Positions 2,740-49,411 of a DNA stretch of 64,000 bases are shown in pieces. The number at the start of each line of letters is the position of its first letter. The first letter of the stretch is position 1. Below the pieces are notes generated by a model. It searched no databases and was not told the DNA's origin. It saw nothing but the letters and a program-made list of their open reading frames with translations. The stretch is taken from assembly GCA_964390555.1 (NCBI GenBank), contig CAYMJU010000086.1, positions 7,661-71,660 of the forward strand, in the 5' to 3' direction. This DNA is from an uncultured Acidimicrobiales bacterium. Lineage in GTDB: Bacteria > Actinomycetota > Acidimicrobiia > Acidimicrobiales > SHLQ01. The translations under genes were made by a program, and so were the position numbers.

Positions 2740-5039
2740 GCGCGGTACCTCCACGTCCAGGGCCCGCGGGACCGGGGCCACCTGGTCCAGGGGCTCGTCC
2801 GGGGCCTCGACGCGTCACGTTCCTCGCCGGCGTCCGGGCCCTCGAACTGGGCGACGGTGTGGCGGGATCGGCCGCGACCAGCGTCCTGTGGGCGCTCGGC
2901 GCCGAGGTCACGACCGTGATCGATCCCGCGAGCCCGCACCGGCGGGGCCGGCCCGCCGCGGGAGCCCGCGGCGCGAGTCTGCTCCCGGCCGCGCTGGACC
3001 GGGGCAAGGCCCTCGTGCGCGGCGTCGACGACCTCGCCGGCATCGAGGCGCTGATCGGGTCGGGAGCCGACGGCGCGCCCTTCGACGTGGTGGTCGTGGA
3101 TCGTGTCGGCGCTCTCGGTGGCGCGCTCGGCCCCCTTGCCGACCTCGACGCGTACGTGCAGCTCGTCGAGAGGTGCAACGGCCGGGCGTGGGTGACGATC
3201 AGCGCGTTCGGGCTCACCGGAGGTCGCGGGGCCGACCCGGCGACCGAGCTCACGGTGGCGGCGGCCAGCGGCATGCTCTCCGCGGTGCGCGACCCAGCCA
3301 CCGGCCGTCCGCTCAAGCTCGGCGGGCAGCAGTCGCTGCTCAACACCGGGCAGGCCGCCGCGCTCGCGGCGTGCCACGCCCTCGATCTCGCCGCCGAAGC
3401 CGCGCCGGTTCACCTCGACCTCGCCGCGGTCGAGGCGACCCTCGCCATGGGTCCGGTGCTCGAGGTCGGCGGCCTGTTGCTCCAGACCGGCGGGGCGGGA
3501 GGGGCGAAGCGCTACGGCGCCCCGGCCAGCTTCTATGAGTGCTCCGACGGCCACGTGCGGATCTCGGCGATGGAGAACCACCAGTGGCAGGGCGTGGTTG
3601 CCGCCATGGGCTCGCCGGCGTGGACCGCACGCTTCGCCACGGTCGAGGCACGCATCGAAGACCCCGACGAGATCGATCGTCAGGTCGAGGCGTGGACAGG
3701 GCAGCGGACCAAACGCGACGCCGAATCGGTTCTCCAGGCCAACGGCGTGCCGGCCTCGGCCGTCTACGCACCGACGGAGATCCTCGACTCACCACAGTTG
3801 CGGTTCCGCGACGCCTTCGAGCCCTTGCTGATCGGGGGTGAGGTGGCCACGGTGGTGGGTCTACCGTTCCGGGTGGTCGGCCGCGGCGAGGGCGCCGGCG
3901 GTCATCGACATCGCTCGTTGCGCGGACTGCGCCTGCTCGAGGCCAGCCGGGTGCTCGCCGTGCCGCTCGCCGGGGCGATCCTCGGTGCGCTGGGTGCCGA
4001 CGTCACCAAGCTCGAGGACCTGCCCCGGCTCGACATGTACCGGCGCCGCGGTCCCTACATCGACGGCTCGGCGGGCGAGGAGCAGTCTGCGTACTTCGCG
4101 TTGATGAACCACTCGAAGCGCAGCGCGGCCTTCGACGTCGACGCCGACCGGGATCGTCTGCACGCCCTGCTCGACTCGTCCGACGTGGTCATCGAGAACC
4201 TGGGCCGCAAGCGGGCCATCAGCCTCGGCGTCGCGCCGGCCGTGCTTCCGGGCACCCATCCCGCTGTGCTGTCGGTCAGCTCGTCGGGCTTTGGCCAAGA
4301 CGGTCCGCACGCCGAGTTCCGGGCCTACGCCTACAACCTCCAGGCGTCGGGGGGGCTGGGCTACCTCACGCGCAACGATCGGGGCGAAGGGGCCGAGATC
4401 GACATCGCCTGGGCCGATCTGATCTCCGCCTATTCCCTGGCCACGATCATCGCCGCCTGGGCCGTGGGTCCGTCGGGGAACCCCGGGGCCGGGCTCGACT
4501 TCTCGATGATCGACCTGGTGGTGTCGCACTTCAACGAGTACCTGGCCGCGGCGAGCCTCGACGCCGGGTCGGACCGGTCGCTCGACCGGGCCAACGAGCT
4601 GGCGCCCTACGCGCCTCACGGGGTGTACCGCGCCGGCGAGGGCTGGGTGGCGATCGCCGTCGACGGCGACGACCAGTTCGCCGCGCTCACCGCGGTGCTG
4701 GCGCATCCGGGCCTCGGCGATACGGCGTACGCGCACGTCGACGGACGGTCGACGCATCGTGCCCGACTCGACTCGCTCATCGACGAGGCGGCCGGCCCCC
4801 GTTCGGCGGCGACGCTCGCGGCCGAGCTCCGCACCGCTGGGGTATGGGCCGAGGCGGTGGAAACGCCGTCCTCGCTGCTCGACAGCCCGACGCTGGTCGA
4901 GCGTGGCTTCTTCGTGCCCGTCGACCACCACGACTGGGGCCGGCGTCGCTTGGTCGGTCTGCCCTGGCGACGATACGGCGGCCCGCCCTTGCCCCTAACG
5001 GCTGCGCCCCGGCTCGGCGAGGAGCGTCGGACACAATGA
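2736..5039 (+). CDS. Tandem-fused family III (CaiB/BaiF) CoA-transferase, 767 aa
   Basis: There are two CaiB/BaiF-like N-terminal nucleotide-fold motifs, about 360 aa apart. One is VRALELGDGVAGSAATSVLWALGAEV near aa 33. The other is LRLLEASRVLAVPLAGAILGALGADVTKLED near aa 395. GTG 2736 overlaps the upstream TGA. Confidence 0.8.
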   Translation: MSAVPPRPGPAGPGPPGPGARPGPRRVTFLAGVRALELGDGVAGSAATSVLWALGAEVTTVIDPASPHRRGRPAAGARGASLLPAALDRGKALVRGVDDLAGIEALIGSGADGAPFDVVVVDRVGALGGALGPLADLDAYVQLVERCNGRAWVTISAFGLTGGRGADPATELTVAAASGMLSAVRDPATGRPLKLGGQQSLLNTGQAAALAACHALDLAAEAAPVHLDLAAVEATLAMGPVLEVGGLLLQTGGAGGAKRYGAPASFYECSDGHVRISAMENHQWQGVVAAMGSPAWTARFATVEARIEDPDEIDRQVEAWTGQRTKRDAESVLQANGVPASAVYAPTEILDSPQLRFRDAFEPLLIGGEVATVVGLPFRVVGRGEGAGGHRHRSLRGLRLLEASRVLAVPLAGAILGALGADVTKLEDLPRLDMYRRRGPYIDGSAGEEQSAYFALMNHSKRSAAFDVDADRDRLHALLDSSDVVIENLGRKRAISLGVAPAVLPGTHPAVLSVSSSGFGQDGPHAEFRAYAYNLQASGGLGYLTRNDRGEGAEIDIAWADLISAYSLATIIAAWAVGPSGNPGAGLDFSMIDLVVSHFNEYLAAASLDAGSDRSLDRANELAPYAPHGVYRAGEGWVAIAVDGDDQFAALTAVLAHPGLGDTAYAHVDGRSTHRARLDSLIDEAAGPRSAATLAAELRTAGVWAEAVETPSSLLDSPTLVERGFFVPVDHHDWGRRRLVGLPWRRYGGPPLPLTAAPRLGEERRTQ

Positions 5040-9788: not shown

Positions 9789-10445
9789 TCAGGATTGGCC
9801 GCGCGCGGCCTTGCGGTCCGGCCGGCCCGAACCCGTGCCGGCCGAGAGCGTGACGAGTAGATCGAATTCGTCGTGGATCACGTCGGCCAGGTCGAAGCTG
9901 GCCGGACCGGCGAGCCAGCGGTTCAGCGCGCGCCGGTAGGTGACGAGAGCGACGGCGGCGAAGAGCGAACACCCCTCGTCGGGCGAGACCAGACCGCGCC
10001 GGGCGGCCACCGCGTCGGCCAGGGTGCCGATGTTCTCGGCGATGTGGTCCTGGACCCGGCCCCGGAGCGTGGGCGACGTTGCGACCGCTTTGTCGTACAG
10101 GCGCAGCGATCTCCGCCCCGACGAGATGCCGGGGGCCGACGACACCAGCGCATCGCGCATGGCGTCGACGTCGCCTACCGAGGCCGGTTGGGCGAGATAC
10201 TGCTTCGTGAAGGACTGGATCCATCCGTACTCGCCGACGAACAGCACCGACTCCTTGGTGGGGAAGTACCGGAAGAAGGTCCGTGGCGAGACGCCCGCCC
10301 GCTCGGCGATCTCGTCGGTCGTGGTGGTGTCGTAGCCGAAGGTCGCGAACAGCTCGAGCGCCGCCTTCTGCAGGGCGCGCTCGGTCCGCAGCTTGTGCTG
10401 CTGGCGGCGCCCCTCGGGTTGGATCGTCGCGACATCATCGGCCAT
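9789..10445 (-). CDS. TetR family transcriptional regulator (TetR-1)
   Basis: HTH region ALELFATFGYDTTTTDEIAERAGVSPRTFFRYFPTKESVLF. The preferred start is ATG at 10445 (MADDVATIQ...). The ORF track begins 3 codons earlier on TTG 10454. Confidence 0.85.
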   Translation of the reverse strand: MADDVATIQPEGRRQQHKLRTERALQKAALELFATFGYDTTTTDEIAERAGVSPRTFFRYFPTKESVLFVGEYGWIQSFTKQYLAQPASVGDVDAMRDALVSSAPGISSGRRSLRLYDKAVATSPTLRGRVQDHIAENIGTLADAVAARRGLVSPDEGCSLFAAVALVTYRRALNRWLAGPASFDLADVIHDEFDLLVTLSAGTGSGRPDRKAARGQS

Positions 10446-10542: not shown

Positions 10543-10570
10543 CTTGGGGGTTTGGTGTCGCAGGCCGAGG

Positions 10571-10654
10571 CTACGAGCGAAGCGAGCGCAGCCGAAGGAG
10601 CGCAGCTCCTCGGATGCAGATGGGGTCTGGTGGCGCAGCCCCCAGCGACAGATG
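10571..10654 (+). repeat. Double-hairpin interspersed repeat, copy A (shortened, no ATG)
   Basis: CTACGAGCGAAGCGAGCGCAGCCGAAGGAGCGCAGCTCCTCGGATGCAGATGGGGTCTGGTGGCGCAGCCCCCAGCGACAGATG aligns with the copies at 29498, 32364 and 36287. Confidence 0.75.
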
Positions 10655-11589
10655 CCGGCGTTCTCGACGAGCCGGGCCTCACCGTCGCGGTGCCCGTAGG
10701 CCTGTTGGACACGAGCCAGTCGTTCCGGGTCGGTGGATTGTGCGCCGAGCAGGTCGACCGCCTGGTCGCGCTCGGCGGAGCGTGGCCCCCGATCGTGATC
10801 GAACCGGGCCGACGGCGCGTCATCGACGGAGCGCACCGGGTCGCCGCGGCCCGCCGGCTCGGTTATAGCCATGTCCAGGCCGAGCTCTTCCACGGCTCGC
10901 CCGACGAGGCGTTCGTCGAGTTCGTTCGCCGCAACGTGACCCAGGGGCTCGTGCTCTCGTTGGCCGAGCGCAAGCACGCCGCGGTTCGCATACTGCGCAC
11001 GAGCCCGATCTGGTCGGACCGAAGGATCGCCGAGTTGTGCGTCGTGTCCCCGAAGACGGTGGCGCGGCTGCGGTCGGGGGACGGCTCGTGCCCAAGTGAG
11101 GACGCGGCCCACTCCGACGACGAGCGTCGTGTTGGCCGCGACCTCCGGGTTCGGCCGGTGCGACGAGGATCGGTGCGGGCGCTGGTGATCGAAGCGGTAC
11201 GGGCGCAGCCGAAGGCGTCGTTGCGCACCATCGCCGCGTCGGTCGGTGTGTCCCCGGAGACCGTGCGCCTGGTCCGGCGGAACCTTGCGCCCGGCGGGTC
11301 CTTGGTGGACGCCGGGTGCGACCTCGATCCTGCCCCGAGCGTCGACGACGGCTCGCCGACCGACACCGTGACCCCATGGCACTGCGATGCCGCGCTGGCC
11401 TCCAGCGAGCGCGGCGAGGAATTCACCCGGTGGTTCGAGAGCACCCATGTCGACGACACCGACCTGAGCTGGGTCGACGCGGTCCCCTTGGGCCGCGTCT
11501 ACGTGGTCGCCGAGGTCGCTCGCCAGCGGTCCGAGATCTGGCTGCGGATCGCCCGGGCCCTCGAGGCCCGTCCGGCGCGAGCGCGGTGA
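10630..11589 (+). CDS. ParB/sulfiredoxin-domain transcriptional regulator (StrR-like)
   Basis: ParB N-terminal domain pattern: AWPPIVIEPGRRRVIDGAHRVAAARRLGYSHVQAELF. Two HTH-like segments follow: SDRRIAELCVVSPKTVARLR and SLRTIAASVGVSPETVRLVRRNL. The start is uncertain. In-frame candidates are GTG 10630, GTG 10555 and TTG 10552. The ORF-track start at 10393 overlaps TetR-1 and was rejected. Confidence 0.65.
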   Translation: MAQPPATDAGVLDEPGLTVAVPVGLLDTSQSFRVGGLCAEQVDRLVALGGAWPPIVIEPGRRRVIDGAHRVAAARRLGYSHVQAELFHGSPDEAFVEFVRRNVTQGLVLSLAERKHAAVRILRTSPIWSDRRIAELCVVSPKTVARLRSGDGSCPSEDAAHSDDERRVGRDLRVRPVRRGSVRALVIEAVRAQPKASLRTIAASVGVSPETVRLVRRNLAPGGSLVDAGCDLDPAPSVDDGSPTDTVTPWHCDAALASSERGEEFTRWFESTHVDDTDLSWVDAVPLGRVYVVAEVARQRSEIWLRIARALEARPARAR

Positions 11590-22866: not shown

Positions 22867-23493
22867 CTAGGAACCCGCCATGATGTCGGCGAGGCGAACG
22901 AACTCGTCGGCGATCGTTTCGCTGAGATCGGCTTCGTCGGGGCCGGCGAGCCACCGGTCGAGGCCCCGATTGTGGGTGAGCACGCCGATGTCGGCCAGGA
23001 GCCGGCAGTTCTCGTCGGGATGTTGGCGACCTCGTCGGGTCGCGATGGCGCTGGCGACGACGGCTAGGTCGTTGAGCCGGTGCTCGTACTCTCGGCCACG
23101 CAGCGTCGGCGAGGACGCCACCGCCCGCTCGTAGAGCAGGAGGTTGGCGCGCCGTTCGGTCAGCGTGGAGCCCACCTGCCGGAAGGTCGTCGCCAGGGCG
23201 TCGAGGTCCGAGAGGTGCGCGGGTTGCCCGAGGAACACGGCGACGAAGGACTGCATCCAGGTGCGCCGGTCTGCGAACAGGACCGACTCCTTGGTGGCGA
23301 AGTACCGGAAGAACGTGCGGCCCGACACCTCGGCGCGCTCGGCGATCTCTTCGGTGGTGGTCGACTCGTAGCCCTGGGTGGCGAACAGGTGCAGAGCGGC
23401 CTCGCGGAGGGCGACCCCGGTTCTGGCCTTGCGCCGCTCGCGCCGGGTCGGAGCGGTGTCGACAGCCGTCGACGAGAGGCTCTGACCGTTCAC
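22867..23493 (-). CDS. TetR family transcriptional regulator (TetR-2, paralog of TetR-1)
   Basis: ALHLFATQGYESTTTEEIAERAEVSGRTFFRYFATKESVLF, and both TetR proteins share SPTLRGR. The preferred start is GTG 23493 (209 aa). The Arg-rich ORF-track extension to 23634 was rejected. Confidence 0.8.
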   Translation of the reverse strand: MNGQSLSSTAVDTAPTRRERRKARTGVALREAALHLFATQGYESTTTEEIAERAEVSGRTFFRYFATKESVLFADRRTWMQSFVAVFLGQPAHLSDLDALATTFRQVGSTLTERRANLLLYERAVASSPTLRGREYEHRLNDLAVVASAIATRRGRQHPDENCRLLADIGVLTHNRGLDRWLAGPDEADLSETIADEFVRLADIMAGS

Positions 23494-27808: not shown

Positions 27809-28662
27809 GTGCGTTGGACGTCGAAGACCTCACGCCAGGGTTCGGCACCGAGGTGAACGGGTTTCATCCCGGCGCGCCGCTCGACCCCGACACCACCCGA
27901 GCCTTGCGGGATCTGTTCGACCGCCGGGGCATGCTCGTGTTCCGAGACGTCGACCTCTCCCACGCTCAGCAGGTACAGCTGTGTGAGACGCTGATCGACA
28001 AGGTCGGCGTGGGCGGTGGCGATGGTTCGCCGGTCGAGGATCGCTGGTACATCTCCAACCGGCGGGACAATTCGGCCGCTCCCTTCGGACGGCTACAGTT
28101 CCATTCCGACACGATGTGGGCGACCCAACCCTTCGAGGTGCTGTCGCTGTACGGAGTCGAGGTGGACGAGCCGGCCGTACCGACCACCTTCGTCAGCGCC
28201 GAGCTGGCGTGGGAGACGCTGCCCGACCAGCTCCGGTCCCGGGTCGCTGAGCTGAGCGTGCTCCAGACGGCCGGCGAGGTCCGGCGGGGAGATCTCACCG
28301 ACGTGCTCGTGACCAACGTCGAACGACCGCCCTCCACGACGACGCGCATCGGGCACCCGCACCCGCGCACCGGGGCCACGCTCCTGTACATCTGCGAACA
28401 GATGACCAAGGAGGTGGTCGGCTTGCCGCCCGACGAGAGCGAGGCGCTGCTGGGGGAGTTGTTCGCTCACCTCTACGACCCGGCTGTCCGTTGGGATCAC
28501 CAGTGGCACAACGGTGACCTCGTCGTCTGGGACAACTTGGCGATCCAGCACGCCAGGTCCAACGTGACGCCGGACGGGCCGACCCGGACGCTGCGCAAGG
28601 TGGCGAGCCCGGTTCCGCAGCTGAGCCCCGAGCAGCGCCCGCGCTACCGCGCCGCATCGTGA
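27805..28662 (+). CDS. TauD/TfdA-family Fe(II)/2-oxoglutarate dioxygenase 2
   Basis: Paralog of 26474-27328. EDLTPGFGTEVNGFHP, FHSDTMW (HxD), DLVVWDNLAIQHAR. Confidence 0.8.
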   Translation: MSALDVEDLTPGFGTEVNGFHPGAPLDPDTTRALRDLFDRRGMLVFRDVDLSHAQQVQLCETLIDKVGVGGGDGSPVEDRWYISNRRDNSAAPFGRLQFHSDTMWATQPFEVLSLYGVEVDEPAVPTTFVSAELAWETLPDQLRSRVAELSVLQTAGEVRRGDLTDVLVTNVERPPSTTTRIGHPHPRTGATLLYICEQMTKEVVGLPPDESEALLGELFAHLYDPAVRWDHQWHNGDLVVWDNLAIQHARSNVTPDGPTRTLRKVASPVPQLSPEQRPRYRAAS

Positions 28663-29441
28663 ACCCGTTCTCGCTCGAGGGCAAGGTCGCACTCGTGACC
28701 GGTGCGGGGCGGGGTATCGGTGCGGCCATCGCTCAGGTGTTCGCTGATTCGGGGGCGGCGGTCGTCGTCACGGCGCGGACCTTGGCCGATGTGGAGGAGG
28801 TCGCCTCGAGGATCACAGACGCAGGTGGTCGGGCCATAGCCGTCGCCGCCGACGTCACCGATGCGTCGCAGCTCCCGAACCTGGTCGCGGAGTGCGCGAC
28901 CGCGTTCGGCGGGCTCGACATCGTCGTGAACAACGCCGGCGCTGGAGGGTCGCCGTCGTTCGTCGACACCCGGATCGAGCACCTTCGGCATGCTTTCGAC
29001 CTCATGGTGGCCGCCCCATTCGAGCTCACCCGCCTGGCGCTCCCGCATCTGCTGGTGCGCCCGGGGGCGTCGGTCATCAACATGTGCTCGGTGGGCGCCC
29101 ACCGCTCCACTCGCGGCAACCTCGCCCACCACACCGCCAAGGCCGCGCTCGCGCACCTGACCCGCCTGATGGCCGCGGACCTCGGGCCTCGCGTCCGGGT
29201 CAATGCGCTGGTCCCCGGTGCAGTGGAGACGCCCGGGCTGCGAGCGGTCTTCGACGCCCGCCCGGGTTTGCGCGATGTCCTTCAAGACCACATCCGGCTG
29301 CGGCGGATGGGCACCCCCGACGACGTCGCGCTGGCCGCCGTGTACCTCGCGTCGCCTGCTGCATCGTGGATCACCGGCACCTTGCTGGACATCGACGGCG
29401 GCACGGTCGACGAGATCATGCCCTCCACGCCGGATCTCTGA
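28659..29441 (+). CDS. Short-chain dehydrogenase/reductase (FabG-like) with HxxxK in place of YxxxK
   Basis: GTG 28659 overlaps the upstream TGA. Motifs KVALVTGAGRGIGAAI and NNAGAG. The active-site segment reads LAHHTAKAAL. Confidence 0.8.
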   Translation: MNPFSLEGKVALVTGAGRGIGAAIAQVFADSGAAVVVTARTLADVEEVASRITDAGGRAIAVAADVTDASQLPNLVAECATAFGGLDIVVNNAGAGGSPSFVDTRIEHLRHAFDLMVAAPFELTRLALPHLLVRPGASVINMCSVGAHRSTRGNLAHHTAKAALAHLTRLMAADLGPRVRVNALVPGAVETPGLRAVFDARPGLRDVLQDHIRLRRMGTPDDVALAAVYLASPAASWITGTLLDIDGGTVDEIMPSTPDL

Positions 29442-29463
29442 GCCCGCGCCGGCGCTCAGTGCC

Positions 29464-29495
29464 CTGCATCCCACCCCAGGTGGGGTAGGATGCAG
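29464..29495. terminator. Stem-loop downstream of the SDR gene
   Basis: CTGCATCCCACCCC-AGGT-GGGGTAGGATGCAG forms 13 of 14 bp. It lies 23 nt after the stop and has no T-tract. Its 3' arm contains TAGGA, the only SD-like sequence for the repeat mini-ORF. Confidence 0.35.
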
Positions 29496-29497
29496 CC

Positions 29498-29594
29498 TAT
29501 GAGCGAAGCGCAGCGAGCGAGTGCAGCCGAGGGAGCGCAGCTCCCCGGTTGCCGATGGGGTCTGGGGGCGCGTAGCCCCCAGCGACGACGATGA
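29498..29594 (+). repeat. Double-hairpin interspersed repeat, copy B (with a 31-codon mini-ORF)
   Basis: TATGAGCGAAGCGCAGCGAGCGAGTGCAGCCGAGGGAGCGCAGCTCCCCGGTTGCCGATGGGGTCTGGGGGCGCGTAGCCCCCAGCGACGACGATGA. ATG 29499 is in frame with TGA 29592-29594. Confidence 0.8.
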
Positions 29595-29902
29595 AGGACG
29601 TCCACGAGAAGGCTGTGCTCAACCGGCTGAAGACCGCGCGGGGCCACTTGGATGCGGTGATCCGCATGGTCGAGGCCGACGCGTACTGCCCCGACCTGAT
29701 GAAGCAGCTCGCGGCGGTACAGGGCTCGTTGGAACGGGCCAGCCGGATCGTCTTGCGCAATCACCTCGAGACGTGTGTCGCCGCTGCGATGGCGGCGGGT
29801 CGCACCGACGAGATCGTCGAGGAGCTGATGGACGCCCTGCGCTATGACCGCACCGTCACCGCGCCCGGTCCCGAGTTGCACCTGACCGAGCAGGGGGGGT
29901 GA
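29591..29902 (+). CDS. csoR: CsoR-family copper-sensing repressor
   Basis: The Cys-His-Cys fingerprint has CsoR spacing: YCPDL..(25 aa)..NHLETC. The product is 103 aa, sits directly upstream of a Cu-ATPase, and overlaps it. Confidence 0.9.
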
Positions 29903-32088
29903 TGACCGCGACGATGCCTGCGGCGCCTGCCGGGGCGGAGTTCTCGGTGTCGGGGATGACGTGTGGGTCGTGCGCGGCCCGGGTGGAGAACGAGCTCGCC
30001 CGCCAGCCGGGGGTGACCCATGCCTCGGTGAATCTGGCGTCGGCGAAGGCCGTCGTCGTATTCCAACCCGGCGAGATCACGCCGGAGGAGCTGGTCGCTG
30101 CGGTCGGCCGGATCGGCTACGGGCTGGGGCCGGTCGAGGCATCGGCCGCGGACGACGGGGTGGACAGCGAGCAGGTCGCGCGGCGGTTGTGGCTGCGCCG
30201 GGTGCTGGTGGCGGGGCCGCTCGGGCTCGCGGTGCTGGCGCTGTCGCTCGGCTACATGCACGATCCGTGGGCCCGGTGGAGCGCCCTCGCGCTTGCGATT
30301 CCGGTGCAGTTCTGGGCGGGGTGGCCGTTCTTGCACCAGGCGGCGGTCCGGGCCCGGGCCCGCCAGGCGAACATGGACACCCTGATCTCGATGGGCACTT
30401 TGGCGGCGTTCGTGTTCTCCGCCTACCAGGTCGTGTTCGGTCCCGAGCACTCCGATCACTACTTCGACACCGCCGCGCTGATCGTGGCGTTCCTGGTGCT
30501 GGGTCGTTACTTCGAGGCGCGTGCCAAGGGCAAAGCGTCGAGCGCGATCCGCAGGCTGCTCGAGTTGGGTGCCAAGGAGGCCCGCCTGGTAGTCGACGGC
30601 GCCGAACGCATGGTCGCGATCGACACGGTGCGCGTGGGCGACGAGGTGCGGGTGCGGCCGGGGGAGAAGATACCCGTCGACGGGGTCGTGGTCGACGGGG
30701 CGTCGGCGGTGGACGAATCGATGTTGACCGGTGAATCGGTCCCGGTCGACAAGGGCCCCGGGGATCGGGTGGCCGGCGCGACGATCAACGCCCAAGGTGT
30801 GCTGACGATGCGGGCCACGGCGGTGGGCGCCGACACCGCCTTGGCGCAGATCGTTCGTCTGGTCGACGAGGCGCAGGGCACCAAGGCGCCGGTTCAGCGC
30901 CTCGCCGATCGGATCTCGGGCGTCTTCGTGCCGGCCGTACTGGTCGTCGCGGCCGTCACCTTCGCCGGGTGGGCGCTGGCCGATGACCTCACGAGCGGCC
31001 TGGTGGCCGCGGTCGCGGTGCTGATCATCGCGTGCCCGTGCGCTCTCGGATTGGCGACGCCGACCGCGATCATGGTCGGCACCGGTCGGGGTGCGGCGCT
31101 GGGTGTGCTGATCAAGGGCGGCGAGGTGCTGGAGCGCTCGAAGCGGGTCGACACGGTCGTGTTCGACAAGACCGGCACCCTCACCAAGGGTCAGATGGCG
31201 CTGACCGACGTCGTGCCCGCCGACGGTGTCGATCCCGGCGAGTTGTTGGCTCGGGCGGCGGCGGTCGAAGCCGGGTCCGAGCACCCCGTCGGTCGGGCGC
31301 TCGTCGATGGCGCCCACCACCGCGGTGTCGATGTCGCGCCGGTCACCGAGTTCGCGGCGGTGACCGGGCACGGTGTGCGCGCCCGCCTCGACGGAATTCT
31401 GGTTCACGTCGGTCGGCGTAAGTTGATGACCGACTCGGGCCTGATGAGTTGTACCGAGGTCGACGCCGCCGCGATGCGTCTGGAGGCCGAGGGTAAGACG
31501 GCGATCATGGCCGGCTGGGACGGCCGGGTCCGTGGCGTGTTAGCAGTCGCCGACACGCTCAAGGACGACGCCGCTGGGGCCGTCGCCCGCTTGCGGGAGA
31601 TGGGGATCGACGTGGTGATGATCACCGGCGACAACCGCCGCACCGCCGAGTCGATCGCCGCTCAGGTCGGCATCGATCGGGTCCTGGCCGAGGTGCTGCC
31701 CGAGGACAAGGTGGGCGAGGTCCGCCGTCTCCAAGCCCAAGGCTTGGTCGTGGCCATGGTGGGAGACGGCGTCAACGACGCCCCGGCTCTGGTTCAGGCC
31801 GACCTCGGCATCGCCATCGGCACCGGTACCGACGTCGCCATCGAGTCCTCCGACATCACGCTCCTGTCGGCCAACCTCGACGGCGTCGCCACCGCGATCC
31901 GCCTGTCTCGCCGGACCTTTCGCACCATCGTCCAGAACCTCGGCTGGGCGTTCGCGTACAACGTCGTGCTCATCCCGGTCGCCGCGCTCGGCTTGCTCGA
32001 CCCGATCCTGGCCGGCGCGGCCATGGCGTTCTCGAGCGTGTCGGTCGTGACCAACAGCCTGCGCCTCCATCGGTTCAGGCCCGGATGA
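29899..32088 (+). CDS. copA: Copper-translocating P1B-type ATPase
   Basis: N-terminal HMA motif [16 protein letters not shown], transmembrane CPC ([13 protein letters not shown]), DKTGTLT and GDGVNDAP. The start is GTG 29899 or ATG 29902. Confidence 0.95.
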
Positions 32089-32363
32089 GCTGCCGAACCG
32101 CTCGATCTCAGCGGTGGCGGAACTTCTGCACCGTTCCCCGCCGACAAACCGAGCAAGGCCGGGTTCGTGTACGGGCCGGCGAACGCCGCGCTGAACCGGC
32201 TGACGGTCGGCGCGTCGAAGAACTCGTGGACGGGACAGCCCGACGATCTCCAACGCTTTATCGCCGCCTGGAGGCGAACCTGGCTGCGCAGGGATGGCCC
32301 GATGCCTTTACCATCGGGCGCGTCCACAGCCCGCGCCCGTGACACAGATCCGAAAGGAGGGGG

Positions 32364-32457
32364 CATGAGAAGCGAAGCGACCGAATGCAGCCGAGGGAGC
32401 GCAGCTCCCCGGACGCCGATGGGGTCTGGGGGCTCGCGGCCCCGGCGACAACGATGA
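32364..32457 (+). repeat. Double-hairpin interspersed repeat, copy C (mini-ORF with a canonical SD)
   Basis: AAAGGAGGGGGC-ATG(32365)...CGATGA(32457). The body GCAGCCGAGGGAGCGCAGCTCCCCGGACGCCGATGGGGTCTGGGGGCTCGCGGCCCCGGCGACAACGATG aligns with copies A, B and D. Confidence 0.8.
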
Positions 32458-33515
32458 TCGATCGGGAGTCGCTGGCCGCGGCACTGAGGCCCGCGTCAGA
32501 GCCACGGATCATCGACGGGGTATACACCGAGGACCAGTTCGAGTCGTTGCTCGGCGTGGTGAAGGAGCACGGGCCCTGGCCGACCATCACCGCCCACCAC
32601 TTCCAGTCAGTCGAGGAGCTCATCGCCACCACGTCGGGTGTGGTTCCCAAAGGTCACGGACTGACCCTCGATGCCATGGCGACGGCCAACTTCCGAGGGT
32701 TCTACGCCGCGAACTCGTGTTGCTACTACCCAGAGATCCACGACTGCTTCTTCAACGCCGGGTTCATCGAACGGGTCAAGGACTACTGGGGGGCGAAGTA
32801 CGCCAAGCCGACGCTGATGCTGTTCAACATCTGTGGCCCGCACAACAGCGGCCTCAGTCCGCACCTCGACGCGGTGACCTTTCGCGGCGTGAGGATCGAG
32901 AACACCCCGGTGTGGATGCAGAACGTGATGGGGAAGTCGGGGTTGTTCCGCGACTACATCGTGAAGATGGCCCAGGTCATCACCTGGTTCTGGTTGGGCG
33001 AGGAGGGCACGTTCACCTACTGGCCCGACGGGCCGCTCGGTGCGCCGCGCCGTATCGAGCACCCGATGTGGAACAAGGGGGTCGTCGTTCAGAACGAGCT
33101 GATGTTCCACCGTGGCGATCCGGTCGGTCGCCCCGACGAGCGGGCCGTACCCGGGCTCGCGAATCGCTCGAGGATCGGGTACCGCGCCTCCACCGACGAT
33201 TGGGCGGTCTCGACCGATGGCGAGGTGATGCGGACCTACGAGCCCGGCAACGTCCGCTTCTTGGTGCACTGGAATGCCGAGGTGTACGCCGACCTGGACG
33301 AGGCGAAGCTGGTGATGGACCACACCGACGATCTGACCCATGATCGGGTCGTGGCCACGTTGCTCGCCGACATGCGGGCCAAGGGCGTCAAGGTCGCGGA
33401 GCCGAGCGACCCGTTCCACGACGACGACTTCATCCACGCGCTGATCTCGACGTACACGATCGCCCCGACCCAGGACTGGGTCCAGCGCACCGACGGCGTG
33501 CGTCGTTCGTCCTGA
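32454..33515 (+). CDS. Hypothetical protein (possible non-heme-iron oxygenase fold, speculative)
   Basis: Strongly GC-rich third positions over 353 codons. ATG 32454 overlaps the mini-ORF stop. I recognise no family. It contains SPHLDAV (HxD) and a later MFHRGD. The alternative start ATG 32385 lies inside the repeat. Confidence 0.65.
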   Translation: MIDRESLAAALRPASEPRIIDGVYTEDQFESLLGVVKEHGPWPTITAHHFQSVEELIATTSGVVPKGHGLTLDAMATANFRGFYAANSCCYYPEIHDCFFNAGFIERVKDYWGAKYAKPTLMLFNICGPHNSGLSPHLDAVTFRGVRIENTPVWMQNVMGKSGLFRDYIVKMAQVITWFWLGEEGTFTYWPDGPLGAPRRIEHPMWNKGVVVQNELMFHRGDPVGRPDERAVPGLANRSRIGYRASTDDWAVSTDGEVMRTYEPGNVRFLVHWNAEVYADLDEAKLVMDHTDDLTHDRVVATLLADMRAKGVKVAEPSDPFHDDDFIHALISTYTIAPTQDWVQRTDGVRRSS

Positions 33516-33534
33516 GCTGCCACAGGAGCAAGCC

Positions 33535-34017
33535 ATGACCGGCCACGACCGTCTCGCCGCCCACGAGTTCGTCCACCACTGGTGGCATCACTACGACGAG
33601 GGGAACCTTGATGTGCTCGCCCCGCTCCTGACCGACGACTGCCGTCTCCGGTCGCGCACCGACACCGGCCGGCACCCGCACGAGGAATTCATCGCCTCGG
33701 ACAATCACGGCCCCGACACGGCCATGGCGTGGACGAGGGAGCACCGCCGGCACAGCCCCTACCCGCTACGACACCAGGCGTCGAACATCTTCGTCGCGGC
33801 GACGCGTGGCGACGAGATCGACCTCGAGTCCTATTTGTTCGTCACCCAGGTCGTGGAGAGCAAGCCGAGCACATTGTCGAGCGGGATCGTGCACCTGACG
33901 CTGCGCCTCACCCCCGACGGCTACCGGCTGAAATACCAAGATGTCGTCCTTGATTCCATCGAGTCCACGGCGTTCCAGGACGTCCCGGAGGTCTCGAACC
34001 GCATGACTCGCTGGTGA
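33535..34017 (+). CDS. NTF2-like (SnoaL-like) domain protein
   Basis: AGGAG lies 7 nt upstream. The 160-aa product carries AAHEFVHHWWHHYDEGNLDVLAPLLTDDCRL, the pattern of SnoaL / ring-hydroxylating beta-subunit-like folds. Confidence 0.65.
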   Translation: MTGHDRLAAHEFVHHWWHHYDEGNLDVLAPLLTDDCRLRSRTDTGRHPHEEFIASDNHGPDTAMAWTREHRRHSPYPLRHQASNIFVAATRGDEIDLESYLFVTQVVESKPSTLSSGIVHLTLRLTPDGYRLKYQDVVLDSIESTAFQDVPEVSNRMTRW

Positions 34018-34129
34018 CGATGGCGAGCGTCGATCATGAGCATGTCTGGGTACCGACTCGACGATTACCGGCGCCACGCGGTGCCATGGGGTTCGCCGAT
34101 CCAAGCGACGATCGGTAGATTCTCCCGGG

Positions 34130-35194
34130 ATGAACCGCGAAGATCCGCACGTAGAGGTACCGGTACGATTCGCGCTGGTCGGATACGGGTTCGGGGGGCG
34201 CTGGTTCCACGCTCCGCTGCTCGCCAGCTCTCGGGCGTGTGATCTCGTCGGCGTCGTAACGACGTCGTCTCAACGCACGGCGTTGGTCGCCGCTGACCAT
34301 CCCGGGGTGCGAACCTTCGATTCCCTCACGCAGGTGGTCGATGCTGGGGTCGAGGCCGTCGCGATATCGACGCCCGCCGACACTCACAGCGCGTTGACCG
34401 ACGAGGCGCTCGAGCTCGGACTCCACGTCGTCTGCGACAAGCCGTTCGCACTCGACGCGCCGGCGGCCGCAAGGTCGGTCGACCTCGCCAGCCAATCGGG
34501 ACGGCTGTTGTCGGCGTACCAGAACCGACGCTGGGATTCGGATTTCCAGACCGTGCGGCGTCTCGTCGAGGCCCATCGGCTCGGCCGGGTCACCCGGTTC
34601 GAGTCGAGGTTCGAACGGTTCGCGCCGCAGCCCGGCCCACCGCCGTCGGGTGGGGGAGCACTTCTCGATTTCGGCAGCCACCTCGTCGACCAGGCACTCG
34701 TGCTCCTCGGCCCGGCCCGCAGCGTCTACGCCGAGCTACGCATCCGCGAGACCGGACTCGACGATGATGTGTTCGTTGCCATCACCCATGACGGAGGAGC
34801 ACGTTCGCACCTGTTCGGGAGCTGGAGCCAGGGCGCACCGGGCCAACGATTCCGGGTCACCGGGACCGACGGCTCCTATGTCGTAGAAGGCCCGATGGAC
34901 GGTCAGGAAGCGGCGCTCGTGGCCGGGCAGAACCCGGCCCTGCTCGGCGACCAGTGGGGCGTGGAGCCCGAAGCTCGGTGGGGCTCGATCCGGCGGGGTC
35001 ATGAGGCCGAGGTGGTCGCAACGGCACCGGGCGCCTGGCCCATCTTCTATGAGATGTTCGCCGCGGCGGTGCGCGGTGTCGGGCCGGTTCCGGTGCCAGC
35101 GGCAGATGCCGTCGAGACGGCCAGAGTGCTCGACGCGGCTCGGCGGAGCGCTCTGACCGGCGAAGTGGTTGCGCTCCGCGGCGAGCGCCACTGA
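34130..35194 (+). CDS. Gfo/Idh/MocA family NAD(P)-dependent oxidoreductase
   Basis: The N-terminal Rossmann region is VRFALVGYGFGGRWFHAPLL. EKPFA-like motif: VVCDKPFALD. Confidence 0.85.
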   Translation: MNREDPHVEVPVRFALVGYGFGGRWFHAPLLASSRACDLVGVVTTSSQRTALVAADHPGVRTFDSLTQVVDAGVEAVAISTPADTHSALTDEALELGLHVVCDKPFALDAPAAARSVDLASQSGRLLSAYQNRRWDSDFQTVRRLVEAHRLGRVTRFESRFERFAPQPGPPPSGGGALLDFGSHLVDQALVLLGPARSVYAELRIRETGLDDDVFVAITHDGGARSHLFGSWSQGAPGQRFRVTGTDGSYVVEGPMDGQEAALVAGQNPALLGDQWGVEPEARWGSIRRGHEAEVVATAPGAWPIFYEMFAAAVRGVGPVPVPAADAVETARVLDAARRSALTGEVVALRGERH

Positions 35195-36724
35195 GTGGGC
35201 ACGATCACCATCTCGGGCCCGACCGGCGAGGACGCCCGGCTCGCGGCGTGGGTCGAACGGGAGCTCGGCGGCCGGGTCACCCGGATCGCACGGCTACCTC
35301 GGTGGCGCCCGGCGTGGGACATCGACGTCGAGGTGAGCGGAGAGGTGGTGCCGCTTCACGCCCGAGGGGAGAGGGAGCCGACGATCCTCATGCCCTTCCG
35401 GATCGCCGACGAGGTACCCGTTCATCACCTGCTCGAAGCGCACGGCGTGCCCGTTCCCCACGCCTACGGGCTCTGTGACGATCCCCATGCCCTGGTGATG
35501 GACCGGCTGTCCGGGAACGTCGATCTGTCCTTTGCCGCCGACGACGCCGAACGGGATCAGCTGACCGGCGACTACCTCGAGCACTTGGCCCGCGTCTACG
35601 ACATCCCGATTTCAGCGGCGGTGGCCGCCGGGTTCGAGATGCCCGCCGACGATGCCGGGACCGCCCTGGGCTACTTCCGCAGGATCGAAGCCGACTACGA
35701 CCCGTTGATGGAGGGACAGCCGGTCGATCCGATCGCCCTGTTCTTCCGTCGCTGGTTGGCCGGCAACGTCCCGGTCGGCCGGCGCGCGTCGGCCCGGTTC
35801 ATCCTCTACGACGCGTTCCAATTCATGTTCGCCGAAGGTCGCGTCACCGGTCTGCTCGATTTCGAGACGGCCCACATCGCCGACCCGATGATGGACCTCG
35901 CCGCGCTCCGGGTCCGCGACACCATCAAGAGCATGGGCGATCTCGAAGCCCTGGTCGCCCGCTACGAAGCGGTCACCGGAATCCCGGTCGACCACGACGT
36001 GATCGAGTACCACAGCGTCTTGTACAACGTGTTGTCGGTGATCCCGACCGGGCCGTCGCTTGCCGTGCCGACCAGGGGTGTCGACTGGCTCACGTATCTG
36101 GCGTGGTACACCAACGGCGCCCGGTGGGCGTTCGAGTGCATAGCCGAGATGCGGGGCTTCCAGCTCGACCCCGTCGAGATCCCCGAGCCGCGGCCCACCC
36201 GACGGGCCCCCGCGTACCGCCATCTAGTCGACAGCTTGCGCGCCGCTTCCTCTCCTGGGAGCGAGGCCCCCAGCGACAACTATGAGGGAGCGCAGCGACC
36301 GAGTGGCAGCCGAGGGAGCGAAGCGACCCGGATGCCGATCGGGTCTGGGGGCGCAGCCCCCAGCGACAACTATGAGCGGTTGAGTGCGGGCAAGCTGGCC
36401 AACCACCTGCGGCGCGTCGACGAGGTCGGGCCGGCGTTCGATGCCGCCGATCTCGACGACCTGGCCGGTGTCCTCGGGTATCGCCCCGATCGGGCCGAGG
36501 CCGAGGCCGAGCTGGTCGAGTTGGTGGCCAATGCCGGCCCCGAGCGCGAGGAAGAGCTCGTGCGGCTTCTCGACGCCCGAGCGCAGCGGATGCACTACAC
36601 GCTGGCGTCGTCGACGTCGCTGCTGGTGCGCCACCCGCGGCTTCGCAGCCTGCGTTCGGGCCGGTCGAGCGCCCGGGGAGCCGACGAGAGCTGGCCCGCC
36701 GGCGCCATCCCCGGCACGGCCTGA
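35195..36724 (+). CDS. APH/choline-kinase-like phosphotransferase family protein with an in-frame repeat insertion and a C-terminal extension
   Basis: GTG 35195 directly follows the upstream TGA. Kinase-fold C-lobe: GLLDFETAHIADPMMDLAALR. The catalytic-loop position reads ILYDAFQFMF rather than HGDxxxxN. At 509 aa it is longer than its two paralogs here (344 and 370 aa). Confidence 0.75.
   Translation: MGTITISGPTGEDARLAAWVERELGGRVTRIARLPRWRPAWDIDVEVSGEVVPLHARGEREPTILMPFRIADEVPVHHLLEAHGVPVPHAYGLCDDPHALVMDRLSGNVDLSFAADDAERDQLTGDYLEHLARVYDIPISAAVAAGFEMPADDAGTALGYFRRIEADYDPLMEGQPVDPIALFFRRWLAGNVPVGRRASARFILYDAFQFMFAEGRVTGLLDFETAHIADPMMDLAALRVRDTIKSMGDLEALVARYEAVTGIPVDHDVIEYHSVLYNVLSVIPTGPSLAVPTRGVDWLTYLAWYTNGARWAFECIAEMRGFQLDPVEIPEPRPTRRAPAYRHLVDSLRAASSPGSEAPSDNYEGAQRPSGSRGSEATRMPIGSGGAAPSDNYERLSAGKLANHLRRVDEVGPAFDAADLDDLAGVLGYRPDRAEAEAELVELVANAGPEREEELVRLLDARAQRMHYTLASSTSLLVRHPRLRSLRSGRSSARGADESWPAGAIPGTA
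36267..36376 (+). repeat. Double-hairpin interspersed repeat, copy D (90-bp unit plus duplicated 20-bp end, in-frame in a CDS)
   Basis: CCCCCAGCGACAACTATGAG occurs at 36267-36286 and again at 36357-36376 (period 90 bp, or 30 codons). The body GGAGCGCAGCGACCGAGTGGCAGCCGAGGGAGCGAAGCGACCCGGATGCCGATCGGGTCTGGGGGCGCAG aligns with copies A-C. Confidence 0.8.
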
Positions 36725-36754
36725 TCGGCGCCGCCGGCAGCCTGTCCAGCCCGG

Positions 36755-37513
36755 TCAGTGGGTGACGCCGACGGGCTCGCCGAAGAGCAGCACGGCGTTG
36801 GCCTTGGCGTCTTCGGGGATCGCAGCCCAGATGAGGCCGGCCGATTCCTCGGCCTCGAGGTAGTTGCCGGTCTGAACCGCCTCGGCCACGCCGGCCTGTC
36901 CGGGGTACGAGTCCGGCGGGAGCTCGGCGTCGCGTCTCGCGGCTGGCGTGTTCACGAAACCGGGGCGGATCGCGGTGACCCACGGACCCTTGCCACGATG
37001 CTTGCGCTCCTTGCGGACGGCGCGGACCCACTGTTCCATCGATGCCTTGGCCGCGCCGTATATGGCGAGGCCCGGATAGGCGATCCGGGCCGACGCCGAG
37101 GAGATCTGGACCAGACCGACGTCGACCCCGGCATCGACGGCGGGTCCGCTGGCCCGTAGGAACATGTCGCCGAGCACGAGAGGTGACATCACGTTGGCGA
37201 TGATCTCGTCTCGGTGGTGGTCGAGGTCCCCCTCACCCGCGAAGGCGCGGCCACCCCAGAAGTAGAGGGCGTTGTGGATGAAGATCGCTTGGCGGCCTCG
37301 GAAGGTGGCCAAGACCTCGGTGAGGTGGTCACCGACGGCGCCCCACGTATCCATGTCGGTCAGGTCGAAGCGAACGGTCTCGTGGTCGGGGTGATCGCGT
37401 CGAGAGACGCTGATGATCTTGGTGTTCGGCCACGGGCAGGTGCGGGCGAGCGCTTCGCCGATTCCGGATGTGGCTCCGGTGATCCAGACGATGTTGTCGT
37501 AGGAGTCGGTCAC
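36755..37513 (-). CDS. Short-chain dehydrogenase/reductase
   Basis: GTG 37513 lies 4 nt after the upstream stop and opens VTDSYDNIVWITGATSGIGEAL. Catalytic motif YGAAKAS. Confidence 0.8.
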   Translation of the reverse strand: MTDSYDNIVWITGATSGIGEALARTCPWPNTKIISVSRRDHPDHETVRFDLTDMDTWGAVGDHLTEVLATFRGRQAIFIHNALYFWGGRAFAGEGDLDHHRDEIIANVMSPLVLGDMFLRASGPAVDAGVDVGLVQISSASARIAYPGLAIYGAAKASMEQWVRAVRKERKHRGKGPWVTAIRPGFVNTPAARRDAELPPDSYPGQAGVAEAVQTGNYLEAEESAGLIWAAIPEDAKANAVLLFGEPVGVTH

Positions 37514-48217: not shown

Positions 48218-49411
48218 ATGAACGTGTTGCCCATCGACGCCGACCACCACTACTACGAATCGCTCGACGCCTTCACCCGGCACATGCCCAGGGAGTTCGC
48301 CCGCCGCGGCGTGCGGGTCGTCCGCGACGGCAAGCGGGTGGAAGTGGTGATGGGCGACAAGGTGAACCGGTTCATCCCCAACCCGACCTTCGATCCCATC
48401 ATCGTGGCCGGCTGCCTGGACCTGTTCTTCCGGGGTCAGATCCCCGACGGGATCGATCCTCGGACGGTCCAGCAGGTCGAGCCTCTTGACCGGCACCCCG
48501 AATACCAGGATCGTGACGCGCGGCTGAGGGTCATCGAGGAACAGGGCCTCGGCGCGGTGTTCTTGTTCCCGACGCTCGGATGTGGAGTGGAGCAGGCGCT
48601 TCGATTCGATGCCGAGGCCACGATGGTGAGCCTTCACGCCTTCAACCTGTGGCTCGAGGAGGCCTGGGGCTTCGACTACGGGGGACGGCTGATCGCGGCA
48701 CCGATGCTCTCGCTCGCCGATCCTGCGGCGGCGGTGGCCGAGGTCGACTCGCTGCTCGATCGGGGGGCGCAGATGGTCCACGTCCGTCCAGCTCCCGTCC
48801 CGACCGGAGATGGCGGGGGCCGATCGCTCGGGCACAAGGACCACGACGCGGTGTGGGCGCGCTTGGCCGAGGCCGGCGTCCCGGTGGCCTTTCACCTCGG
48901 CGACAGCGGGTACGAGGGGGTGCTGGCCTCCGCGTGGGGTGCCCACGGCACCTTCGAGGGGTACGGCAAGCTCGATCTGCTCACCAAGATCACGGTGTCG
49001 GACCGGGCGATCCACGACACCGTGGCGTCGTTGATCGTCGATGGCGCGTTCGCCCGCAACCCGGGGCTCAAGGTGGCGAGCATCGAGAACGGCTCGGATT
49101 GGGTGAAGCTGCTCGTCAAGCGGCTGCGAAAGCAGATGAACCAGACGCCCTGGGCGTTCAAGGGTGACCCGATCGAGCAGCTCCGCCAGAACGTGTGGGT
49201 CACGCCGTACTACGAGGAGGACATCGTCGCCCTAACCGAGGTTCTCGGTGCCAACCGGGTGCTGTTCGGCTCCGACTGGCCCCACGGGGAGGGACTGGCG
49301 ACGCCGCTCGACTTCGTGAACGAGCTCGACGGGCTCGACGACGACACCAAGGCGCTCATCATGCGCGACAACGCGCTCGAGTTGCTCGGCCGAGTGTCGG
49401 TGGTGGTCTGA
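48218..49411 (+). CDS. Amidohydrolase-2 (ACMSD-like TIM-barrel metal hydrolase/decarboxylase) family
   Basis: N-terminal IDADHHYYE (HxH-type metal motif). C-terminal VLFGSDWPHGEG. Confidence 0.8.
   Translation: MNVLPIDADHHYYESLDAFTRHMPREFARRGVRVVRDGKRVEVVMGDKVNRFIPNPTFDPIIVAGCLDLFFRGQIPDGIDPRTVQQVEPLDRHPEYQDRDARLRVIEEQGLGAVFLFPTLGCGVEQALRFDAEATMVSLHAFNLWLEEAWGFDYGGRLIAAPMLSLADPAAAVAEVDSLLDRGAQMVHVRPAPVPTGDGGGRSLGHKDHDAVWARLAEAGVPVAFHLGDSGYEGVLASAWGAHGTFEGYGKLDLLTKITVSDRAIHDTVASLIVDGAFARNPGLKVASIENGSDWVKLLVKRLRKQMNQTPWAFKGDPIEQLRQNVWVTPYYEEDIVALTEVLGANRVLFGSDWPHGEGLATPLDFVNELDGLDDDTKALIMRDNALELLGRVSVVV

Follow-up and report, generated by a model that had tools for sequence, protein, structure and literature searches.

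REP, BIME, and REPIN sequences are imperfect, G+C-rich hairpins found outside genes in large numbers and in clusters; their stems covary, and they are mobilized by RAYT (Y1 HUH) transposases. Miniature elements derived from IS200/IS605 are related to them, and the left end of IS608 combines a cleavage site with a guide. Among repeats that insert into start codons, MIRUs are, to our knowledge, the only textbook family that keeps the gene expressed through a coupled mini-ORF, and they occur only in mycobacteria. MIRUs were described by Supply et al. (1997), and the account given here follows three later papers (PMC12548453, PMC4473831, and PMC3184786). A 2025 review (PMC12548453) presents them as apparently mobile units whose insertion into a start codon leaves the gene coupled to the MIRU ORF with a spacing of −4 nt. 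Reviews also state that MIRU ORFs overlap contiguous ORFs in the same orientation, that the units are without dyad symmetry (PMC4473831), and that tetranucleotide direct repeats and the comparison of empty with filled sites suggest transposition (PMC3184786). The last of these papers also cites the Rickettsia palindromic elements (RPE), repeats that are fused in frame to genes (Ogata 2000, as cited in PMC3184786).

We analyzed a 64-kb stretch of DNA (here referred to as the window), which has a G+C content of 69.5% and whose protein homologs place it in the Acidimicrobiales/Acidimicrobiia. The window contains four full copies (A to D) of a repeat (nhmmer E = 2e-22 to 3e-24) and a partial copy of 31 nt, each of them on the + strand; a 23-nt hairpin motif within the repeat had 0 matches in 100 shuffles. 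Copy C, at the start of a conserved 353-codon gene, fits the functional description of a MIRU point by point. We consider it likely that copy C represents one insertion of a MIRU-like hairpin repeat of ~90 nt, whose mini-ORF would act as a relay that keeps the gene expressed.

The likeness to MIRUs extends to the family as a whole. Both consist of 40- to 100-nt units that are dispersed as well as tandem, and for the present family we count four copies in the 64-kb window and, outside it, 51 or more arrays. Both are intergenic within operons and co-oriented, in this case inside rapZ-yvcK and dehydratase operons. The small ORF overlapping its neighbors at −4 spacing is found in copies B and C, twice in a locus termed L042, and in a locus termed L200, which are not the majority of copies. 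The empty and filled sites with tetranucleotide repeats have their counterpart in four empty sites and in the ATGA on both sides of copy C. Unlike MIRUs, the Acidimicrobiia family is strongly palindromic with covariation (hairpins H1 and H2 and, in many copies, H0), its hosts are Acidimicrobiia and not Mycobacterium, and most of its copies lie at the 3' stop of a gene and not at a start. We thus class the family as MIRU-like in its proposed way of working and not as a MIRU. Homology to MIRUs was rejected: local alignment of the family to a MIRU dimer, with motifs A and B taken from PMC6286618, gave z = −0.2 to 1.7 relative to shuffles, and the only sequence in common is GAGCG[A/T]AGCGA.

RESULTS AND DISCUSSION

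Copy C lies between two ATGA motifs at the start of a conserved gene

The features around copy C are as follows, with the evidence for each in parentheses.

32131 to 32342, + strand: decayed SDR remnant with its native stop, TGA 32340 to 32342 (blastn against the intact ortholog in L001; HSPRP-stop ending in L204, L206, and L207)
32353 to 32360, + strand: Shine-Dalgarno sequence (SD) AAAGGAGG, native to the 353-aa gene and now ahead of the mini-ORF (repeat alignment without the SD; equivalent SD in four repeat-free loci)
32365 to 32457, + strand: copy C, a 30-codon mini-ORF from ATGAG... to ...CGATGA, with ATGs 89 nt apart (filled versus empty sites)
32385 to 32387, + strand: in-frame ATG, taken as the start by the public annotation P0001 of 376 aa (no suitably spaced SD; 23 residues absent from orthologs)
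32387 to 32416, + strand: hairpin H1, outer stem GCAGCCG/CGGACGC and inner stem GGGAGC/GCTCCC (fold; outer-stem covariation over 47 copies)
32426 to 32445, + strand: hairpin H2, degenerate in copy C (CTGGGGGC TCGC GGCCCCGG; family consensus CTGGGGGC GCA GCCCCCAG) (alignment)
32454 to 33515, + strand: conserved 353-aa gene without a Pfam match, followed by a SnoaL_4 gene as in orthologs (homologs)

An earlier note on this DNA had described an SD, a 30-codon mini-ORF, an ATGA junction onto a 353-codon gene that lacks an SD, and an in-frame ATG at 32385, and every one of these sequence statements holds. The SD is followed by GGGC and then by ATG 32365 to 32367 (the letters here read CCGAAAGGAGGGGGCATGAGAAGCG...GGCGACAACGATGATCGATCGG). 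The mini-ORF encodes MRSEATECSRGSAAPRTPMGSGGSRPRRQR and ends in a TGA (32455 to 32457) that overlaps ATG 32454 to 32456 of the 353-codon gene. The 15 nt 5' of ATG 32454 (GGCGACAACG) contain no purine-rich SD, and H1 and H2 are both placed between the SD and this ATG, with 8 nt from the end of H2 to the ATG; independent initiation at 32454 therefore looks unlikely. ATG 32385, inside copy C, is in frame with the 353-codon gene, and the frame is open from there. An open frame of 30 codons in 70% G+C DNA has an estimated probability of ~0.5 by chance and is not significant alone; the nontrivial part of copy C is the presence of ATGA at both ends together with the correct frame. Copy C is also the most degenerate of the copies, with a mutated H2.

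Repeat-free orthologous loci carry an equivalent SD and an ATGA start

Comparison with orthologous loci that lack the repeat, which the earlier note had put forward as a check, yielded four loci with an SDR stop, an SD, and an ATGA start. The nearest homolog of the 353-aa protein (P0002, 83% identity) is encoded in one of them, L001, where its ATG overlaps the TGA of a preceding SDR gene (312 aa), and the repeat is absent from this locus. In three others (L204, L206, and L207), the SDR ends in HSPRP-TGA as it does in the window and is followed by a spacer of ~25 nt containing an SD and then by the ATGA start. Across the four loci, the equivalent SD lies 5 to 9 nt before the ATGA start. The flanks in the window are the same as those of the empty loci, plus 89 extra nt between the two ATGs. 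Since the empty loci hold an equivalent SD and the ATGA, the SD and ATG 32365 are the signals of the 353-aa gene itself. In the alignment of the copies, similarity runs from (A)TGAG through ...CGACRACKATGA, and the SD upstream of copy C lies outside it. The idea that the repeat is a portable translation-initiation element is not supported, as the SD and first ATG belong to the host flank; the other copies lack them, and the four repeat-free loci have them. Judging from the filled and empty sequences, copy C is placed on the T/GA of the native ATGA (the slash marking the point of entry), with a second ATGA rebuilt at the 3' end of the repeat.

The orthologs also locate the start of the protein. 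They are 348 to 358 aa long and share the N-terminus MT(L/V)ID..., which aligns with 32448 to 32454, and both features therefore place initiation at 32454 or close to it rather than at 32385. This speaks against the alternative raised in the earlier note, in which a start at 32385 would add 23 aa, and no conserved coding N-terminus spans the copy C segment in the orthologs. The public call P0001 (376 aa, starting at 32385) is an outlier, and because all homologs are 348 to 358 aa, its annotated N-terminus is probably wrong, with repeat-encoded residues read as protein. A practical consequence is that automatic annotation probably miscalls the start of this gene (376 aa versus 353 aa).

It is nonetheless conceivable, if clearly unlikely, that the gene starts at ATG 32385 with 23 repeat-encoded N-terminal residues and that the mini-ORF is irrelevant. 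The frame is open from this codon, P0001 uses it, copy D shows that a repeat-encoded peptide can be tolerated inside a protein, and the 99-nt spacing of the copy in L153 would give an in-frame N-terminal extension. However, 32385 lacks an SD at a distance of 5 to 12 nt, ribosomes would be captured 20 nt upstream by a perfect SD-ATG pair that is in a different frame, and such an extension is found in 0 of ~120 homologs.

The window protein lacks two N-terminal residues that are found in the orthologs, so the copy C junction is not a clean insertion. The SDR remnant has lost its 5' 465 nt and ~230 nt internally, as shown by blastn against the intact ortholog in L001. We asked whether the insertion might simply have cut the gene off from its SD, leaving it silent or decaying and the ATGA junction a mere leftover. 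The SDR partner is already a pseudogene with csoR-copA in place of its 5' part, and the degenerate state of copy C would also fit. Against this, the 353-codon ORF is intact, with 83% identity to its nearest homolog and a normal third-position G+C of 0.89, and its SnoaL neighbor is kept; we regard a silent gene as very unlikely.

The block (29591 to 32088) that has taken the place of the first 465 nt of this SDR gene encodes a copper repressor and a P-type ATPase (csoR-copA), and copies B and C bracket it as direct repeats 2.86 kb apart. We rejected a composite csoR-copA transposon bounded by B and C, since the block ends on its right within the SDR remnant, with 280 nt still to go before copy C.

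Mini-ORFs at five stop/start junctions are consistent with a coupling relay

The remaining copies in the window are the following.

10565 to 10657, + strand: copy A, degenerate, with CTACGAG for ATGAG and without the terminal TGA (flanked by a divergent TetR-like gene and by an HTH gene)
29499 to 29594, + strand: copy B, a 31-codon mini-ORF from ATG 29499 whose TGA overlaps ATG 29591 of csoR (29591 to 29902)
36255 to 36376, + strand: copy D, ~1.3 units with 90-nt spacing, made up of a full unit (36285 to 36376) and a partial 3' piece (36255 to 36285)

Five copies in all occupy stop/start junctions: copies B and C in the window, L042:3852-3947, L042:4840-4932, and L200:1472-1570. Each of the five contains an ORF of 30 to 32 codons that begins at a 5' ATG or GTG and ends with its TGA over the ATG of the next gene. 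The csoR product downstream of copy B matches Pfam PF02583 from residue 6. The first copy in L042 leads from a methyltransferase gene to rapZ through TGATG overlaps, and the second leads from rapZ to yvcK/cofD through ATGA overlaps. The earlier note had called the repeat a coupling cassette. Comparison across the five junctions favors coupling as a predicted property of these copies, and the portable SD is the part of that proposal that falls away.

In L042 (positions 3850 to 4932; JBJXGF010000288.1, from another Acidimicrobiales MAG), the two copies break up a conserved methyltransferase-rapZ-yvcK(cofD) run and are associated with 11-nt direct repeats.

The junction mini-ORFs run through the conserved core in two different frames (RWGLGAQPP versus MGSGG.SP), and no peptide is conserved among them; indels give copy B a frame through the core that differs from that of copy C. 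Given the use of two frames, the peptide is irrelevant and compatibility of frame alone is kept. That the mini-ORF encodes a functional micropeptide is thus extremely improbable: a perfect SD and ATG and the ORFs of similar length in other copies would agree with it, but the core is read in two frames, indels shift the frame within copies, and no peptide sequence is conserved. Frame compatibility, by contrast, looks selected at the junction copies. The frame rule is followed in five of five copies (~0.004 under a uniform null, for a small sample of copies chosen after the fact). Tandem periods within arrays, at sites free of this constraint, fall in all three residue classes modulo 3, and the spacings of the intragenic copy D (90 nt) and of L153 (99 nt) are both in frame. 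This pattern is what would be expected if indel variants that break expression were purged, with the proviso that the junction copies number five and were picked post hoc.

Based on these observations, we propose the following series of events at copy C. The repeat would have entered the T/GA of the ATGA start of the 353-aa gene, leaving the native SD and ATG upstream and re-forming a second ATGA at its own 3' end. Ribosomes loading at the native SD would then read a meaningless 30-codon ORF through the repeat, melting H1 and H2 as they go. Termination at TGA 32455 to 32457 would be followed by reinitiation at the overlapping ATG 32454 (−4 spacing), and the gene would stay expressed. We infer the arrival by insertion, the translation of the mini-ORF, and the reinitiation from the arrangement of the DNA. 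The degenerate state of copy C, the decay of the upstream partner gene, and the unclean junction are points against a relay at this site.

If the relay operates as proposed, the MIRU type of solution would be found again in a family that is apparently unrelated to MIRUs and belongs to a distant class of actinobacteria. The family would also offer natural contrasts among junction relays, an in-frame intragenic copy, and unconstrained tandem copies at 3' ends. These contrasts would show that the coupling strategy is general and would provide a clean comparative test of whether frame compatibility is selected.

Copy D is read in frame within an APH-family (kinase-like) gene (35195 to 36724), where it adds ~33 aa to a variable linker; the host protein has 509 aa, versus about 466 to 477 aa in 120 homologs. 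Alignment with these homologs places the insertion point in a native ...DYER... (TAT/GAGCGG). A 21-nt direct repeat is found at the flanks, and two ATGAG motifs lie 90 nt apart. Copy D resembles an RPE in being a hairpin-capable, in-frame repeat in a variable region of a conserved protein whose ORF remains intact. Unlike RPE, the family has no sequence relation to those elements, and only one of the four window copies is intragenic.

Family members come from Acidimicrobiia and form covarying hairpins

We scanned 185,579 species genomes with a sequence pattern and then applied nhmmer. In this search, true members came from MAGs of Acidimicrobiales/Acidimicrobiia only: F1F2.bin.335 (JBJXGF01, ~20 loci), BC3.65 (JAWKIM01), BTUT01, and CAVVGJ01. 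A metagenome scan contributed ~15 further loci; a metagenome pattern built on the H1 variant specific to the window gave no matches. Outside the window there are at least 51 arrays in 44 loci, each array having one to three cores. The distribution is patchy: the closest orthologous loci of the 353-aa gene lack the family.

The conserved core of 59 nt consists of H1, then GATGGGGT, and then H2 (CTGGGGGC-GCA-GCCCCCAG). Ahead of the core lies a further module, H0, in which a conserved loop (GAGCGNAGCGA) is held by a variable stem; the H0 stems are 4 to 7 bp long and have at least six different sequences in ~20 copies. The outer stem of H1 is 87% paired over 47 distinct copies, with changes on both sides in six of seven pairs and a conserved mismatch at one position. 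The observed covariation was reached in 0 of 500 shuffles, and the signal collapses in slid controls. In the structure test of the copies, 92.8% of cells were paired. H2 is almost invariant across the family. The repeats had no Rfam match, either in the window at the gathering threshold or in seven loci at E ≤ 1. We found the hairpin motif in no paper, and we found no description of Acidimicrobiia repeats; because no paper was found, the family is apparently undescribed.

Most arrays follow a stop codon

In 28 of the 51 arrays, the TGA within an xTGAGCG motif is the stop codon of a long ORF that has a high third-position G+C and is co-oriented with the array; in 23 of these 28, the stop lies 12 to 19 nt before the core. 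Wherever an upstream gene is detectable, the array is co-oriented with it; the downstream gene may have either orientation. An excess of TGA among the stops at repeats was considered and rejected (26/28 versus a background of 83%, not significant). Because 28 of the 51 arrays follow a stop without a start codon, coupling is not the general role of the family, and the stop-following copies might equally well have a structural role as RNA or DNA.

These arrays raise the possibility that the repeat acts mainly in cis, as structured RNA or DNA, and is selected at the 3' ends of genes, where it might be a terminator or attenuator without a U-tract, a 3'-end stabilizer, or a processing site, and that the mini-ORF of copy C is incidental. 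The position of the stop codon, the orientation that always follows the upstream gene, the covariation of H1, the near invariance of H2, and the H0 stems of at least six sequences around a conserved loop all agree with such a role. So does the composition of H0, the 5' strand of which is made up of the final codons of the gene upstream; in both upstream genes tested, a MoxR ATPase (L031) and RapZ (L042), the C-terminus is of native length, and this combination is hard to obtain without local selection or target pairing.

Several observations nevertheless run against a 3'-end element. No intrinsic terminator was called at the repeats in a scan of positions 28000 to 37500, and the repeat tails read CGACAAC..., with no U-tract after the hairpins. 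The genes between neighboring repeats are ordinary operon genes (a methyltransferase gene, rapZ, yvcK/cofD, and paired dehydratase subunits), and termination inside housekeeping operons such as rapZ-yvcK or that of the dehydratase would be harmful. Locus-specific exact direct repeats of at least 10 nt, shared by the flanks across the xTGAGCG junction, occur in 21 of 45 arrays versus 7% of cross-locus pairs; together with the variable tandem number (with periods of 73 to 111 nt in arrays that have two or three cores), they indicate a spreading element. The patchiness of the family and its absence from the closest orthologous loci also count against selection at 3' ends. On balance, we hold a 3'-end element with an incidental mini-ORF to be a possible but unlikely account of copy C and continue to favor the coupled relay there.

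Runs in which genes and repeats alternate in one orientation, with the repeat beginning at the stop codon (L042 and L068), are reminiscent of integron attC arrays. An attC/cassette array was rejected: of the R''/L''...L'/R' architecture of attC, the R''/R' core sites (GTTRRRY) are lacking, and the intervening genes (rapZ, yvcK/cofD, dehydratase subunits, and methyltransferase) are housekeeping genes. Among the neighboring ORFs tested at repeat loci, there was no transposase, cassette gene, or autonomous parent element.

The H2 motif and a possible guide

The family hairpins resemble REP/BIME/REPIN sequences in being G+C rich, imperfect, extragenic, numerous, and clustered, with conserved sequence and covarying stems. 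In contrast to REP/REPIN, in which a conserved GTAG/CTAC tetranucleotide adjoins a palindrome of ~35 nt, there is no such tetranucleotide, and clustered copies are direct and not inverted doublets. The Y1 transposase gene that would be expected for REP/RAYT is likewise missing among the neighboring ORFs tested, and the right end has no matching guide. The family differs from MITEs, which have terminal inverted repeats and a short target-site duplication, in its direct ends (xTGAG ... xTGA), with no terminal inverted repeats visible. The order of a target ending in T/GA, an 11-nt linker, a 5- to 7-nt segment complementary to the target, and the foot of a hairpin is similar to the left end of IS608; flanking direct repeats of 10 to 25 nt are, however, not expected from an IS200/IS605-type mechanism.

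The IS608 likeness brings up a more speculative and, in our estimate, improbable idea, namely that the repeat is a guide-directed miniature single-strand element in which the 3' strand of H0 pairs with the last codons of the host gene and H2 is a shared recognition module. If so, the 5 to 7 nt located 5' of H1 would direct insertion at the T/GA of stops or ATGA overlaps, and a changed guide would mean a changed target. H2 would then be recognized by a widespread, undescribed mobilization or RNA-binding system. More generally, stops embedded in a covarying hairpin, together with a hairpin motif common to several phyla, may point to a new targeting mechanism.

The 23-nt H2 motif GGGTCTGGGGGCGCAGCCCCCAG (window positions 36341 to 36363 and 10623 to 10645) is present in exact form in >100 metagenome contigs with unrelated flanks and G+C contents of 0.41 to 0.74. 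These contigs (loci L081 to L200) include an abundant high-G+C repeat family with the organization ..CAGCCCGTCCGGCGTTTGAGGACGAG-hairpin-..-H2-GGGAYGGGACGGGTAGGGGCGGCGGGGGCGAAAA. Sites of the motif are also found next to tRNA genes and with T-runs following. The motif matched no Rfam family and no paper. Anchoring to stop codons was not seen in the other H2-bearing high-G+C family, in which the distances are variable, and a BLAST search of that family's consensus, including H2, against plasmids gave no matches.

A further observation concerns tRNA-Sec. The repeat segment CGGNNGCNGATNGGGTCTGGNGGC (copy A, 10599 to 10645, and its equivalents) resembles the first 23 nt of tRNA-Sec, comprising the 5' strand of the acceptor stem and the D-arm; the matching genes are from Gemmatimonadota, Zixibacteria, Ignavibacteria, NC10, and others (L004, L006, L010, L012, and L032). 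The match involves the 24 nt that adjoin H2 and end in its 5' arm (GGGTCTGGNGGC), and in copy A, 22 of the 24 nt agree with the start of tRNA-Sec. We rejected an origin of the repeat in tRNA-Sec, as the likeness stops after the first 23 nt of the tRNA. The resemblance is curious in that the repeat sits on UGA codons, and it may be due to chance.

Other repeats and RNA matches in the window

Between the stop of an SDR gene (28659 to 29441) and copy B lies a strong hairpin, GCATCCCACCCCAGGTGGGGTAGGATGC (29466 to 29493), which is possibly the terminator of that gene. A 201-nt direct repeat (10209 to 10409 and 23245 to 23445, 74% identity) is unrelated to the family of copies A to D and is probably paralogous coding sequence. 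The sole Rfam match in the window at gathering score is to Ms_AS-1, a Mycobacterium antisense sRNA (48290 to 48387, − strand, 50.1 bits), and it probably reflects a conserved protein-coding gene on the opposite strand.
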